Of a stretch of DNA of 54,508 nt, positions 43,806 through 52,871 are shown piece by piece (position 1 is the stretch's first letter; every line of letters begins with the position of its first letter). The notes under the pieces are model-generated. The model searched no databases. It had not been told where the DNA came from and worked only from the letters and a program-made list of their open reading frames with translations. This DNA is from Anaerolineales bacterium (GTDB lineage Bacteria; Chloroflexota; Anaerolineae; Anaerolineales; UBA11579), in contig JBKJWG010000315.1 of the NCBI GenBank assembly GCA_046716985.1, positions 1 through 54,508 of the forward strand, in the 5' to 3' direction. A program made the translations under genes and the position numbers.

Positions 43806-45239
43806 GTGGCTAAACGTATCTTTATCAGCGCCGACCATGGGCTGGCAATCGTCTATTTCCTGCAAAGCGATGTGGTCAAGTCCTTAATAGCTGGGGGGGC
43901 AGAAGTGGTTTTGCTCGCCAATGACGCCTTGGTGGAGCAGATTCAAAAGCGTTTTGGACAGCCTGGCCTCATCATTGAGGGTCTCTGCTTGCAACAGGCC
44001 CAGGATTACTTCAAAAGCGTTTCGCATGGCCGTCAGTGGTGGCTGGACTTTTTACGGCGCGCCGGTGCCTCCAATCGCATCAACTTGGAAGCCGTGGATA
44101 GCTATTTCAACCAAGTTAAATCCGAAGCCCACCCGCGCCGTAAGTTGCTCTTTCCCATCATGCAGTTAGCCGTTGCAATCCTGCGCCGTGCGCGCTGGGC
44201 GCGGCGCAGGCTGCTGAAGGCTCAATCGCGTTTCACGCCCAGCATCTATGCCGATCTCTTCGACAAATATCAACCAGATCTCGTAGTCGCCAGCACGCCG
44301 GGTTGGCGCTTTGACCGTTATCTATTGCGCGAAGCCGCCGCGCGCAATATTCCTACCGCTTCCGTGATCGTGGGCTGGGACAACACCAGCAGTTATAGCT
44401 TGCCCGGCGCGCCCGTAGACTGGATCACTTGCTGGTCTGAAATTCAAAAAGATGAATTGGTCAAAACTGCCGATTGGCATCCCGATCGCGTTAACATTGG
44501 TGGTATTCCTTCTTACGATGGTTACTTCAACAAAGAGTGGCTGCTGCCGCGCGAAGAATATTTCAAATCGCACAACCTCGATCCGAAGCGCAAGCTCATT
44601 TCCTATGCCAGCAGCTTCATCACTTTTTCGCCAAACATTCAAAATATCGAAGCCTTGGCCGAACTGCTCACTGGCGATCAACTCGCCGAACCGAGTCAGC
44701 TGCTGGTGCGTTTGCACCCTAATCATTTCATGGATGTAGAGCGTTTCGCTGCCGAACGCGAACAGATTCGTGCGCTGGCGCAAAGGGTGCCACATGTTCA
44801 CGTGGTCGAACCGGTGCCCTTGGGCGGCCCTTTGGGCTATTATTCGGGCGAGGATATGCCTGAGAAATCTTCGATGATGGCTTATTCGGATGTGTTCGTC
44901 ACCGTGTATTCCACCATGGTGGTTGAAGCCTCGACCCACGCGTGCCCAGTGGTAAGCGCCTGTATTGATTCGAAGCTAGGCTGGCCGGGCAAATTTACGT
45001 TGCCCCTTTCGAAGATCGGGAATTGGCCTACTCATTCGCGTTTTCGCAATTCGGGTGCAGGCCGCGTTGCTTACAATAAAGGTGAATTGCGCAACGCATT
45101 GAATTTCTATTTGCAAAATCCCGCCGCTGACGCCGAAGCGCGCCGCGCTTTTACCGCTCGCGAATGCACATTCACCGATGGCAGCGCGGGGCGCCGCACT
45201 GGCGAATATCTGCTATCGCGCATGGGCCAACGCTCATGA
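43806..45239 (+). CDS. uncharacterised GT-B-like protein with HP motif
   Basis: The track start at 43716 overlaps the upstream gene by 82 nt. The GTG at 43806 lies 6 nt after AGGA (43796-43799). 'LVRLHPNHF' has its HP codons at 44715-44720. 'AYSDVFVTVYSTMVVEASTHACPVV' follows about 55 aa later. The layout parallels 34633-36222. Confidence 0.4.
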   Translation: MAKRIFISADHGLAIVYFLQSDVVKSLIAGGAEVVLLANDALVEQIQKRFGQPGLIIEGLCLQQAQDYFKSVSHGRQWWLDFLRRAGASNRINLEAVDSYFNQVKSEAHPRRKLLFPIMQLAVAILRRARWARRRLLKAQSRFTPSIYADLFDKYQPDLVVASTPGWRFDRYLLREAAARNIPTASVIVGWDNTSSYSLPGAPVDWITCWSEIQKDELVKTADWHPDRVNIGGIPSYDGYFNKEWLLPREEYFKSHNLDPKRKLISYASSFITFSPNIQNIEALAELLTGDQLAEPSQLLVRLHPNHFMDVERFAAEREQIRALAQRVPHVHVVEPVPLGGPLGYYSGEDMPEKSSMMAYSDVFVTVYSTMVVEASTHACPVVSACIDSKLGWPGKFTLPLSKIGNWPTHSRFRNSGAGRVAYNKGELRNALNFYLQNPAADAEARRAFTARECTFTDGSAGRRTGEYLLSRMGQRS

Positions 45240-46258
45240 GCAACCGCATCAGCCAGGTGCTGCGCCTGTTGCTCACCGGCAAAGTGCAGCAAAGCGAGCA
45301 GCGCGAAATTCCGCAGATCAGTATCGAGGACTTGGCCGAGATCAAAGAATTTTTCCCCATGCCGAAATTCTTCGTTTTCGGCCATGCTCGCTCTGGCACG
45401 ACGTTGCTGGCTCGCTTGATTCGTCTCCATCCCGATATTCATTGCAACTGGCAGGCTCACTTTTTCACTCGTCCTCCGCTGCTGAGTGGCGTCCTGGCTG
45501 ACCAAAAATTTGAAGCCTGGCTGGCGCGCCCCAGCAACCGCTGGAACCGCGGTCGTGATCTTTCTCCGGTGGCGCTGCGCGCCATGAGCGATTACATCCT
45601 CGAGCGCGACGCGCTTAAAGAAGGCAAATCCATCGTGGGCGACAAGAGCCCCAACGTGCTGCTCGGCGGCGGAGCCGTGCGCGAGATGCAGCGTATTTAT
45701 CCGGACGGCTCGCTGATCTACATTGTCCGCGACGGGCGCGACACGCTCATCTCGCATCGATTCCAGAATTTCATCGATGGCAGCCAATTCCTGACCCGCG
45801 CCGATCTGACGTTGCGGGATGCCTTTGCCAAAGATTCCGAACCCTTCTTTGCCGGCAAACGCTCCGTGTTCACGCCTCAGGCGCTCAAGAGCATGGCCAA
45901 GAGCTGGGCCGACAATGTAGTCGAAACCGATCGCCTCGGGCACCAGCTTTACGGCGATCGTTATTTTTCGTTGCGCTACGAAGATCTGCTGGCGCGACCA
46001 TTCGAAATGCTCACCAAGACCTGGGCTTTTTTGAGCGCCAACTCTGAAGGACTTGAGAATAAAGTCAACGCAGAAATGGCGCAAAACCCGGATGCGGTCT
46101 ACCAAAAAGAAAAAGCCCCCGACCTCGCCGCGGCGCTGGAAAAAGGCAAGCGCGGTTCCTGGAAACAACTCTTCACGCAGGGCGACAAAAATCTCTTTAA
46201 AGAAACCGCCGGCGAGGTTTTGCTTACCTGGGGCTATGAGCAAAGCGCGGATTGGTAG
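45236..46258 (+). CDS. PAPS-dependent sulfotransferase
   Basis: ATG at 45236 in an ATGA overlap (track start 45164). 'FVFGHARSGTTLLARLI' is a 5'-PSB-type loop. 'YIVRDGRDTLISH' is a 3'-PB-type motif. Confidence 0.75.
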   Translation: MSNRISQVLRLLLTGKVQQSEQREIPQISIEDLAEIKEFFPMPKFFVFGHARSGTTLLARLIRLHPDIHCNWQAHFFTRPPLLSGVLADQKFEAWLARPSNRWNRGRDLSPVALRAMSDYILERDALKEGKSIVGDKSPNVLLGGGAVREMQRIYPDGSLIYIVRDGRDTLISHRFQNFIDGSQFLTRADLTLRDAFAKDSEPFFAGKRSVFTPQALKSMAKSWADNVVETDRLGHQLYGDRYFSLRYEDLLARPFEMLTKTWAFLSANSEGLENKVNAEMAQNPDAVYQKEKAPDLAAALEKGKRGSWKQLFTQGDKNLFKETAGEVLLTWGYEQSADW

Positions 46259-51078: not shown

Positions 51079-51110
51079 AGCTAGGTAAACTTCAAGATCA
51101 CGGAGCACAG

Positions 51111-52871
51111 ATGGCAGTCGCTGCAAGAAGCAAAGAAAAGCTGAATAGCCCCTATGGCGGGCAATTGATCAATTTGGTCAAGACAGGCGCCGAGCGTGAA
51201 ACGCTGCTCGAACAAGCCACCCATTTGCCCGATATACGCCTCTCGCAGCGTTCGCTGCACGATCTGGAATTGCTGGCCGTAGGCGGTTTCTCCCCCTTGG
51301 ACCGTTTCATGGGCAAGGCCGATTACGAGCGCGTGATGGACGAAATGCGCCTCGCCGATGGCGCTCTGTTCCCTATCCCCATTACCCTAACAGTCAAAAA
51401 AGAAGAGCTAGCCAGCAAGACTGGCCAGGTCGTGCTACGCGACGGACGCAACAATACCTTTGCGATCATGGACATCGAAGAAGTGTATGGCTGGGACCCG
51501 CAAATCGAGGCGCAAAAAGTGCTTGGCACTACTGACCCGCGCCACCCGCTGGTTTCCGAAATGATCCGCTGGGGCGATCTGTGCGTTTCGGGCCGCATCC
51601 AAGTTATTGACCTGCCCTCTTATAGCGATTTTGCCGAGCTGCGGCGTACGCCGAGCGAAGTGCGCGAAAGTCTCGAAGCGATGGGCCACGCCAATGTGGT
51701 GGCGTTCCAGACGCGCAACCCGATGCACCGCATCCACGAAGAGCTGACTAAGCGCGCCGCTGAACAGGTGGATGGCAGCTTGCTGATCCATCCCGTGGTG
51801 GGCATGACCAAACCTGGCGACGTCGACCACTACACGCGCGTGCGCGTGTATCGCACACTCGTCGAGAACTATTACGATCAGAACCGCACACTGCTGAGTT
51901 TGCTGCCGCTGGCCATGCGCATGGCAGGCCCGCGTGAAGCGGTGTGGCATGCCATCATTCGGCGCAACTATGGCGCCAATCATTTTATCGTCGGACGCGA
52001 TCACGCAGGTCCGGGCAACGATGCCTCTGGCAAGCCCTTCTATGGGCCCTACGATGCTCAGGAATTGCTGGCCAAACATGAAGACGAGATCGGCGTGAAG
52101 ATGGTGCCGTTTAAAGAATTGGTGTATCTGGCTGACGAAAAACGCTATGTAGAAGCGGGCCAGGAACCCAAGGACGCCAAGATCCTGAATATTTCCGGCA
52201 CGCAGGTGCGCGATAACTATTTGGCTAAAGGCGATTATTTGCCTGAGTGGTTCACGCGCCGCGAAACCTCGGCCATTCTGCTCGAAATGTATCCGCCGCG
52301 GCATAAGCAAGGCTTTTGTCTGTGGTTCACCGGTTTGAGCGGTTCGGGCAAATCGACCACGGCGCAGATCCTGACTTCGCTGCTGATGGAGCGCGGCCGC
52401 CAGGTCACGGTGCTGGATGGTGATGTGGTGCGCACGCATCTCTCCAAAGGTCTCGGATTCAGCCGCGACGATCGCGATACGAACATTTTGCGCATCGGCT
52501 TCGTGGCCGGCGAGATCGTGCGCCAACACGGCGCGGTCATCTGCGCAGCGATCAGCCCCTTCCGGGCGGCGCGCAACGAATGCCGCAAGATGGTGGGCGA
52601 AGACAAGTTCATTGAAGTCTTCGTCGACACACCCATCGAAGTGTGCGAGGAGCGGGATACCAAAGGTCTGTATGCCAAGGCGCGCCGCGGCGAGATCACC
52701 GGCTTTACCGGCGTGGACGACCCGTATGAAGAGCCACGTAATCCCGAGATCACTTTGGACACGGTCAGCTTCACTCCGGAGCAGAACGCGCGCAAGATCG
52801 TCGAATATTTGGAAAATGAAGGTTTGGTGCTGCCGCCTGGCAGCAACGGGGTCAGCCGCTCGGCCGCTTAG
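51111..52871 (+). CDS. sat/cysC: bifunctional sulfate adenylyltransferase / adenylylsulfate kinase (PAPS synthase)
   Basis: The GGAG RBS lies 5 nt before the ATG. ATP-sulfurylase motifs are '[17 protein letters not shown]' and 'VGRDHAGPG'. The C-terminal APS-kinase P-loop is '[18 protein letters not shown]', with '[17 protein letters not shown]'. Confidence 0.9.

Follow-up and report, generated by a model that had tools for sequence, protein, structure and literature searches.

We propose that an uncultured Anaerolineales bacterium (Chloroflexota) sulfates a cell-surface glycan by means of a sulfotransferase, ST1, and a 3'-phosphoadenosine 5'-phosphosulfate (PAPS) synthase, Sat-CysC, which are both encoded in one glycan locus on contig JBKJWG010000315.1 (54,508 bp; this whole stretch is called the window here). 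ST1 is encoded at 45236-46258 and Sat-CysC, a fused ATP sulfurylase/adenosine 5'-phosphosulfate (APS) kinase, at 51111-52871, both on the plus strand. Both enzymes are identified by family and by fold, their active-site motifs are intact, Sat-CysC lies inside the locus, and its linkage with sulfotransferases is conserved across genomes. On this basis we consider it probable that the two enzymes bring sulfate onto the surface glycan of the locus before export. The original prediction, made from the DNA letters, was that the product is probably a sulfated envelope polysaccharide or exopolysaccharide; enzyme identity, fold, locus position and cross-genome linkage, that is, comparative genomics, support this reading.

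Based on its family, motifs and fold, ST1 (340 aa) is a PAPS-dependent sulfotransferase, the sulfuryl transfer itself being predicted. It scores above the gathering cut-offs of both profile hidden Markov models (HMMs) that had been suggested for a check, with 75.6 bits against 27 for Sulfotransfer_3 (PF13469, E 9e-21) and 38.1 bits against 22 for Sulfotransfer_1 (PF00685, E 1.5e-9), and it is the sole sulfotransferase within the window. Database matches at E <= 1e-5 number more than 2,500, and the best 120 of them, 59-91% identical and almost all 339-346 aa long, come from metagenome-assembled genomes (MAGs) of Anaerolineales, Anaerolineae and Chloroflexota; public annotation of such proteins already reads "sulfotransferase". 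A longer start at 45164 was rejected, because these best 120 are 339-346 aa or shorter variants and start with MSNR. The two PAPS-type motifs of the original prediction, GHARSGTT (residues 49-56) and RDGRD (residues 165-169), are invariant in 30/30 aligned orthologues of 60-91% identity. The first is part of the 5'-phosphosulfate-binding (5'-PSB) loop FGHARSGTT (residues 48-56, nt 45377-45403), which follows strand 44-49 of the structural model, and the second is part of the 3'-phosphate-binding (3'-PB) element IVRDGRDTLISHRF at residues 163-176 (IVRDGRD..SHRF, nt 45722-45763), formed by strand 159-164 and helix 167-181; loop and element are invariant as well. The same holds for GDKSPN (residues 135-140) and for a third PAPS motif that had not been listed before, KGxxGSW (KGKRGSW, residues 303-309, nt 46142-46162). 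With the AlphaFold2 (AF2) model of ST1 (pLDDT 86, pTM 0.84), Foldseek found 81 matches in the PDB at E <= 0.001. Absence of a PAPS-binding fold had been named as an observation that would overturn the prediction, and the top 50 matches are all PAPS sulfotransferases, mostly co-crystallised with 3'-phosphoadenosine 5'-phosphate (PAP), which include the tyrosylprotein sulfotransferases TPST1/2, a bacterial structural-genomics sulfotransferase, the CurM sulfotransferase, Stf9, heparan-sulfate 3-O-sulfotransferases and cytosolic sulfotransferases (SULTs). From the low similarity to these solved folds (TM 0.4-0.58, identity 17-22%), the modelled ST1 is a divergent branch of the sulfotransferases. 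It has no hydrophobic N-terminal segment and therefore should act in the cytoplasm, which is the site of PAPS synthesis.

It is noted that, as ST1 belongs to PF13469, a mixed family, its acceptor could in principle be a protein tyrosine, as for the TPSTs and RaxST, or a lipid or small metabolite rather than a sugar. TPSTs are indeed the closest solved proteins both by sequence (E 6e-7) and by Foldseek (TPST1/2, E 3e-7), and CurM and the cytosolic SULTs are among the other close folds. Nevertheless, we consider such an acceptor very unlikely. The identity and TM values given above are low for the TPSTs too, and PF13469 also contains a true carbohydrate sulfotransferase, NodH (PMC11625862). A tyrosylprotein sulfotransferase has a catalytic Glu after the PSB helix, which ST1 appears to lack: in the HMMER alignment Glu99 of TPST2, which we take to be the catalytic residue, falls on Gln73 of ST1, a pairing that, at about 20% local identity, could be off by a few residues. 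Both Gln73 and the nearby His75 are invariant in the ST1 family. The role of Glu99 was reportedly described by Teramoto et al. in 2013. Moreover, ST1 lies within a fixed ten-gene sugar block, where it overlaps or abuts sugar enzymes, and no peptide-precursor or type I secretion genes were noticed near it. The many invariant arginines of ST1, including those of the loop SNRWNRGRD, would fit an anionic acceptor. The NodH/NoeE equivalogs do not claim ST1 either, since it matches NoeE only, with 23.6 bits against a cut-off of 500 (NCBIfam), and the label 'LPS sulfotransferase NodH' that the Joint Genome Institute (JGI) gives to some homologues is a generic assignment. Thus, of the original term 'carbohydrate-type sulfotransferase', the PAPS sulfotransferase part stands, while the sugar specificity is suggested by genomic context and the nearest solved relatives are TPSTs.

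The Pfam domains of Sat-CysC are PUA_2 (residues 13-167), ATP-sulfurylase (176-392) and APS_kinase (400-550), it passes the NCBIfam equivalog NF004040 (PRK05537) with 858.4 bits against a cut-off of 669, and it matches the bifunctional sulfurylase/APS kinase of Aquifex (PDB 2GKS) over its full length with E 2.5e-239; an exact-protein look-up of the copy in the window returned no record. The sulfurylase motifs and the kinase motifs (P-loop, LDGD, AISPF) are intact in the translation, where the kinase half was read with what we take to be the defining motifs of APS kinases (P-loop, DGD, FSxxDR, ISP), and it is therefore unlike a degenerate regulatory domain. Judged by its sequence, Sat-CysC is a bifunctional PAPS synthase with a kinase domain predicted to be competent. 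It starts 4.85 kb past the ST1 stop, in agreement with the approximately 5 kb first noted, and between the two genes there are a Gfo/Idh/MocA oxidoreductase gene, two minus-strand membrane genes (47248-50478) and a 632-bp intergenic region. That Sat-CysC belongs to the glycan locus, as was originally claimed, follows because the glycan genes continue after it, with a short-chain dehydrogenase/reductase (SDR) gene and a PseF-like/haloacid dehalogenase (HAD) gene running to the contig end, and because the linkage is seen from the side of ST1 and from that of Sat-CysC.

A scan of 185,579 species genomes for Sat-CysC orthologues gave 80 loci from 80 species (loci are numbered with L), which were screened for a strong sulfotransferase-family open reading frame (ORF) within 10 kb, using three seeds and an HMM. 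Such an ORF was found in 26/29 Chloroflexota loci with >=8 kb on both flanks, and in 42/45 of those with >=7 kb downstream. Even among the three apparent exceptions, one (L057) has Pfam Sulfotransfer_1 and PMT_2 genes immediately downstream of Sat-CysC. A phmmer screen with ST1 alone missed the sulfotransferase of L015, and the three-seed and HMM screen either did not find the sulfotransferases of L057 and L064, which Pfam revealed, or scored them too low; the figure of '0 of 14 in other phyla' is thus too small and carries no weight here. L015 is a differently built locus, where a 334-aa Sulfotransfer_1/3 protein is encoded between two glycosyltransferase family 4 (GT4) genes, near Wzm/Wzt and PMT_2 genes, and in L064, of Blastocatellia, a Sulfotransfer_1 gene neighbours Sat-CysC. 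Viewed from ST1, Sat-CysC is within 6 kb in 4/5 independent loci (L001, L003, L084-L086), and in three of these (L003, L085 and L086, with ST1 62-67% identical) the genes for ST1, Gfo, Sat-CysC, SDR, CMP-transferase, NeuB and Capsule_synth are all co-directional. In close relatives few genes of the locus are better conserved than those of Sat-CysC (80-86% identity) and ST1 (75-79%). Conservation of Sat-CysC independently of the locus, which was to count against the prediction, is not what is seen: the gene stays near sulfotransferases, even non-orthologous ones, in differently built loci. Sulfotransferase and PAPS synthase thus lie together in one conserved biosynthetic locus, as expected of a locus-dedicated module, although the word 'dedicated' in the original prediction is borne out in part; ST1 is not the sole client of the synthase, as discussed below. 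The remark that glycan sulfation is uncommon is true across bacteria, whereas in Anaerolineae the module is widespread. In addition, in the four Aquificaceae loci (L062, L067, L072, L074) a CysQ-like Inositol_P phosphatase gene is found beside Sat-CysC in 4/4, which hints that the well-studied Aquifex enzyme may also serve glycan sulfation. In one of them (L074, 9149-13972) we also observed the order CysQ-like gene, Sat-CysC, Wzx-type flippase and a weak sulfotransferase-like ORF.

On the other hand, Sat-CysC could be the housekeeping enzyme of sulfate activation for cysteine and methionine, with the glycan genes as incidental neighbours and the sulfotransferases drawing on a general PAPS pool. 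This would agree with the presence of one fused Sat-CysC per genome in the 80 loci of 80 species, with its rank as the most conserved gene of its region, with the promoter-like motif and leader of its own that it keeps also outside a glycan context (L011), and with the Chloroflexota MAG surveys that count sat and cysC as assimilatory (PMC11005417). Against it, no cysH, sir or sulfate-transporter gene was seen nearby: the Pfam families PAPS_reduct, NIR_SIR and sulfate transporters are absent from the gene tables of the five annotated neighbourhoods (L001, L003, L084-L086), and a crude search for the CysH motif ECG[LIV]H found it in no ORF of 83 loci, over neighbourhoods of about 10 kb. The APS kinase domain is moreover dispensable for assimilation of the APS-reductase type, and about 90% of the Chloroflexota loci show glycan genes together with a sulfotransferase, including non-orthologous ones. 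The housekeeping explanation thus appears unlikely to us, and it is noted that a housekeeping and a glycan-sulfation role of Sat-CysC are compatible rather than mutually exclusive.

Several observations weigh against glycan sulfation by Sat-CysC and ST1 as proposed here. Within the window the two genes do not form one transcription unit, with opposite-strand genes between them and separate predicted promoters. The nearest solved proteins, as given above, act on protein tyrosine and not on carbohydrate. Among Sat-CysC loci with >=6 kb upstream, 21/41 have an ST1 orthologue. Conversely, in L084 an ST1 locus has no Sat-CysC within 10 kb, and in L011 a Sat-CysC orthologue of 83% identity lies beside a 2-oxoacid:ferredoxin oxidoreductase gene and an integrase gene, with no sulfotransferase. 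Many of the compared loci are related by descent, and their numbers therefore do not represent independent events. Finally, none of the RNA-seq runs contains the gene; the DNA sequencing runs that match this population are from freshwater sediment and soil.

The most constant partners of Sat-CysC are not ST1 but the genes that follow it, which encode the SDR, a CMP-transferase fused to a HAD phosphatase, a NeuB-type synthase and a second kind of sulfotransferase, ST2 (Sulfotransfer_1, 284 aa). In the window the SDR (52890-53702, plus strand; Pfam, NCBIfam) and the PseF-like CMP-transferase/HAD fusion (53699-54508, plus strand, cut by the contig end; Pfam, NCBIfam) can be seen, and by their sequences they are the start of a second ulosonic-acid module, and the locus has two modules of the NeuB type. 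The syntenic L001 continues after these two genes with those for a NeuB-type synthase of 290 aa and for a further Capsule_synth protein. Among Chloroflexota loci with >=5 kb downstream of Sat-CysC, the SDR is present in 40/46, and the CMP-transferase/HAD fusion and the NeuB-type synthase in 41/46 each. ST2-type genes are found 5-10 kb downstream of Sat-CysC in most loci, and in seven close relatives (L005, L006, L008, L009, L012, L014, L073), where they encode about 287 aa, roughly 10.3 kb downstream of its start, as tandem pairs in 6/7 (approximately 20300-21750 in L005, L006, L009, L012, L014 and L073; 20223-21191 in L008), after NeuB, Capsule_synth, an acyl-carrier protein, an aminoacyl-tRNA-synthetase-like ligase and acetyltransferases. 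The expected position of ST2 in the present genome is about 7 kb past the contig end. The ST2 pair in the close relatives therefore suggests that the organism probably carries three sulfotransferases around one central PAPS synthase, with ST1 not the sole client for PAPS and perhaps not the main one.

These data allow a refinement that is compatible with the proposed sulfation of the glycan by Sat-CysC and ST1, namely that the true core consists of Sat-CysC with the SDR, CMP-transferase/HAD, NeuB and ST2, making a sulfated ulosonic-acid unit, and that ST1 is an accessory, clade-restricted second client. Besides the constancy of the downstream genes, compared with about half of the loci for ST1, L047 speaks for it: there a self-contained six-gene module (Sat-CysC, a PMT-like gene, SDR, CMP-transferase/HAD, NeuB, ST2) stands alone with unrelated genes on its flanks. 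Against it, ST2 lies outside the window and its presence here is deduced from the seven close relatives, and the sequence of ST1 is more conserved than most genes of the locus. We give this refinement an even chance.

For the proposed sulfation by Sat-CysC and ST1, the following pathway can be envisaged. In the cytoplasm Sat-CysC would convert sulfate, with two ATP, through APS to PAPS, and presumably it would not also serve cysteine synthesis. ST1 would then transfer the sulfuryl group from PAPS to a hydroxyl (or an amine) on a glycan sugar or on an activated or lipid-linked precursor, before export. The glycan nature of the acceptor and this timing we infer from the setting of the genes, and our best guess for the residue is a pseudaminic-acid-like nonulosonic acid, the product of the ten-gene block, or a neighbour of it. 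The same PAPS supply would feed the further ST2-type sulfotransferases beyond the contig end, and the GT-C-like membrane proteins that recur by Sat-CysC may be responsible for adding or attaching units on the outer side of the membrane. The finished chain would leave via Wzm/Wzt. Based on the gene content, the export route is the ABC-transporter-dependent one with recognition of a terminal cap, since a Wzm permease (32486-33352, plus strand; ABC2_membrane, E 2e-19 in Pfam, and NCBIfam) is encoded next to a Wzt ATPase (33353-34636, plus strand) with ABC_tran and a C-terminal carbohydrate-binding domain, Wzt_C (E 7.9e-9, 36.1 bits against a cut-off of 30.4). A KpsC/S-like Capsule_synth protein (34558-36222, plus strand; Pfam, NCBIfam) follows.

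It is also noted that Sat-CysC has a conserved leader (51021-51074, plus strand), which ends 36 nt before the start codon. The sequence TGGTATCAT at 51021-51029 resembles an extended -10 element, of which the family form TGGTATnAT is invariant, and approximately 20 nt after it there is a terminator-like 12-bp GC-rich hairpin with variable loop, ACAGCCTGC-loop-GCAGGCTGT, and a T-run (51047-51074), the best terminator-like site within 45000-54508. Across 12 aligned loci the stem and the -10-like motif are invariant while the flanks diverge. The hairpin occurs once per locus, solely before Sat-CysC, within 1.39 Mb of loci, and it is present in 18/18 loci with Sat-CysC >=76% identical (L001, L003-L016 and L073 among them), whether the gene upstream is a divergent membrane gene, a co-directional Gfo gene or a 2-oxoacid oxidoreductase gene (L011). 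That it is the terminator of the upstream gene was rejected, because this gene is divergent and the hairpin accompanies Sat-CysC into unrelated contexts. The Rfam scan of the whole window found nothing at gathering score, with only far-sub-threshold noise in the leader and intergenic region, and the leader has too little room for a riboswitch aptamer. From its sequence it looks like a clade-specific terminator/attenuator or 5' stabiliser, and it may act as an attenuator of the PAPS supply. As a separate observation, the intergenic region before Sat-CysC (50479-51110) is 632 bp long in the window as compared with about 137 bp in the syntenic L001, and it holds an inverted repeat (CTTCGCGGAGTTTACACTGAGCA) at 50923-50976 whose 23-nt arms match perfectly across an 8-nt spacer and which has no second copy in the window; the extra DNA with its repeat may represent a small inserted element or serve as a binding site.

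The ten-gene block around ST1, whose order is conserved in L001, L003 and L084-L086, is rigid and lies entirely on the plus strand. It consists of PseB (37071-38078; equivalog, 485 bits against a cut-off of 407.75), an RmlD-like reductase (38075-39007; Pfam), a NeuB/PseI-like synthase (39010-40074; PDB E 2e-42), a GT4 (40090-41160; Pfam), a cytidylyltransferase (41091-41918; Pfam), an unknown protein (41816-42823), a GT2 (42823-43797; Pfam), a protein of GT-B fold (43806-45239), ST1 and the Gfo/Idh/MocA NAD(P) sugar oxidoreductase (46259-47251; Pfam, NCBIfam). PseB is followed by the RmlD-like 4-reductase in place of the aminotransferase PseC, and the score of the NeuB/PseI-like synthase reaches neither equivalog cut-off. 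This points to a nonulosonic acid of an unusual kind, in which a hydroxyl replaces an amino group, and this hydroxyl may be a site of sulfation. No gene accompanies ST1 more constantly than the Gfo gene, which begins immediately behind the ST1 stop codon: the pair is kept in the same five loci and in at least 20 others, with a tight junction in every locus compared.

Upstream of ST1 is the conserved GT-B-fold protein of 477 aa, with weak Glyphos_transf and BFO_1060 matches, whose orthologues (70-89% identity) are mostly named 'hypothetical'. A start at 43716 was rejected on homologue lengths, 43806 being the most likely. Its AF2 model (pLDDT 79) is best matched in Foldseek by UDP-GlcNAc 2-epimerases and GT-B glycosyltransferases (TM 0.5-0.7). 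The name 'GT-B-like' in the original prediction is therefore right as to the fold; as to the function, the model points to either a glycosyltransferase or an enzyme like the NDP-sugar 2-epimerases/hydrolases, which the fold does not separate, and the protein may be the NDP-sugar hydrolase/epimerase otherwise missing from the nonulosonic pathway. The ST1 start codon (45236) overlaps the stop codon of this gene (45237-45239) as ATGA, so the translational coupling noted earlier is there in the window, but it is not universal: in L084 the two genes are 119 nt apart, and in L085 a methyltransferase gene stands between them. In L073 (3185-5641) the orthologue of the GT-B-fold gene is split into three ORFs and that of ST1 into two, by pseudogenisation or long-read indel errors.

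Between the Gfo gene and Sat-CysC, the minus strand encodes the paralogous membrane proteins Mem1 (531 aa, 47248-48843) and Mem2 (543 aa, 48847-50478), which are 52% identical and distantly PMT_2/GT-C-like. The copies in the window have no Pfam match, and neither Mem2 nor the GT-B-fold protein matches the PDB by single sequence or profile. When family members were scanned singly against Pfam, PMT_2 was found in 3/12 (best E 6.7e-6); an alignment of assorted PMT_2-positive proteins was too divergent for profile comparison and was discarded. The family has an invariant N-terminal DDAxxSM motif (FDDAMISMQYA), and Mem1 and Mem2 probably belong to an undescribed GT-C-like family. The genes are absent in L003, L006, L016, L085 and L086, where Sat-CysC comes directly after Gfo, and a single copy, in divergent orientation, lies beside Sat-CysC in the more distant Anaerolineae L051, L070, L080, L045 and L030. 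The locus encodes four other membrane proteins of very large size (693, 882, 867 and 517 aa; at 15508-20224 and 25787-29945), two with weak PMT_2 matches and two without a Pfam match, which together with Mem1 and Mem2 brings its GT-C-like candidates to six. As to the window as a whole, nearly the entire contig is a single cell-surface glycan locus: practically all genes in bases 1-47251 are on the plus strand and serve glycan synthesis, with at least nine GT4/GT2 glycosyltransferases, several S-adenosylmethionine (SAM) methyltransferases, a LegC/PseC-like aminotransferase, sugar-nucleotide epimerases, a GDP-fucose-synthase-like protein and large PMT_2-like membrane proteins. A B12-binding radical-SAM enzyme (20283-21767) is encoded amid the methyltransferases. 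The G+C content is even (0.52-0.59), giving no hint of a foreign insert around ST1 and Sat-CysC.

A broader reading, which we put forward as doubtful, is that across phyla the fused Sat-CysC family makes PAPS for glycan sulfation and is not an assimilatory enzyme, that in Anaerolineales it supplies up to three sulfotransferases acting on a nonulosonic/ulosonic glycan, that the clade-specific leader attenuator gates the PAPS supply, and that Anaerolineae are producers of those sulfated sialic-acid-like polymers which chemical analysis has measured in sediments and granular sludges with no producer assigned (PMC10483923). In this case the sulfated residue could be a non-reducing-end cap that is read by Wzt_C, coupling chain termination to export, or, alternatively, the GT-C-like proteins could deliver it on the outer side of the membrane. 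In sediments, soils, groundwater and bioreactors the Anaerolineae count among the most abundant of the filamentous bacteria that are uncultured, and hardly anything has been described of the chemistry of their envelope. Nonulosonic-acid synthesis together with several sulfotransferases and a PAPS synthase of their own, throughout the lineage, predicts a strongly anionic sulfated surface polymer, which, if it exists, would affect aggregation, metal binding, recognition by phages and predators, and the cycling of sulfur and carbon. In the extracellular polymeric substances (EPS) of granular sludge, sulfated and sialylated polymers are abundant and the sulfotransferases have not been identified (PMC10483923). 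The present locus offers candidate genes for such sulfated glycoconjugates detected in environmental EPS without assigned producers (PMC10483923), although it is speculative to link the sludge polymers with this organism, since its population comes from freshwater sediment and soil. Moreover, sat and cysC scored as "assimilatory sulfate reduction" in surveys of Chloroflexota MAGs (e.g. PMC11005417) may mark glycan sulfation instead.

Finally, we compare the locus with known systems. No paper was found in the literature on genes for sulfated-glycan synthesis in Chloroflexota. In cyanobacteria, polysaccharide loci with embedded PF13469/PF00685 sulfotransferases, which resemble the present one, lead to a sulfated extracellular polymer; these clusters belong to another phylum and have no nonulosonic-acid modules. 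An example is the xss cluster for the sulfated exopolysaccharide synechan of Synechocystis, which follows the Wzx/Wzy-type pathway, different from the route here. Sulfated-EPS regions are also described in cyanobacterial MAGs from Shark Bay, with no sulfotransferase in the two Chloroflexi MAGs of the same study (PMC9723792). As to the synthase, the Aquifex aeolicus enzyme (2GKS) has the same domain order and full-length homology with Sat-CysC, in another phylum; in the Aquificaceae MAGs its gene lies between those for a CysQ-like phosphatase and a Wzx flippase (L074), a locus type other than the present one. As to the sulfotransferase, human TPST1/TPST2 (PDB 5WRJ, 3AP1) have the closest solved fold, and their xxRSGTT loop, VRDGR and the lysine of NKDP/DKSP align with ST1. 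By contrast, ST1 has large insertions, such as the invariant SNRWNRGRD loop, and a different residue at the position of the catalytic base, and the TPSTs are Golgi enzymes whereas ST1 is bacterial and predicted to be cytoplasmic.

The closest parallels are those in which a sulfotransferase comes with its own PAPS supply. In Xanthomonas oryzae the TPST-like RaxST relies, as ST1 would, on dedicated PAPS-synthesis genes (raxP/raxQ), and it sulfates a tyrosine of the peptide RaxX, which leaves the cell through a type I system. In the present locus the neighbours are glycan genes and a Gln stands at the position of the catalytic Glu. In Sinorhizobium meliloti nodH adjoins locus-specific ATP sulfurylase and APS kinase genes (nodPQ), so that a PF13469 sulfotransferase goes together with locus-borne PAPS synthesis, as with ST1 and Sat-CysC. 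NodH acts on a glycoconjugate, the Nod factor (PMC11625862), as is proposed for ST1. The differences are that NodPQ is of the CysD/CysN-CysC GTPase type and not a fused Sat-CysC, that the acceptor of NodH is a lipochitooligosaccharide, and that ST1 is no orthologue of NodH/NoeE by equivalog score. Judged from the genes, the logic of the locus is thus the known one of nodH-nodPQ and raxST-raxPQ, built from different parts: a fused synthase of the Sat type and a sulfotransferase that is outside the NodH/NoeE equivalogs and does not keep the catalytic residue of the TPSTs.

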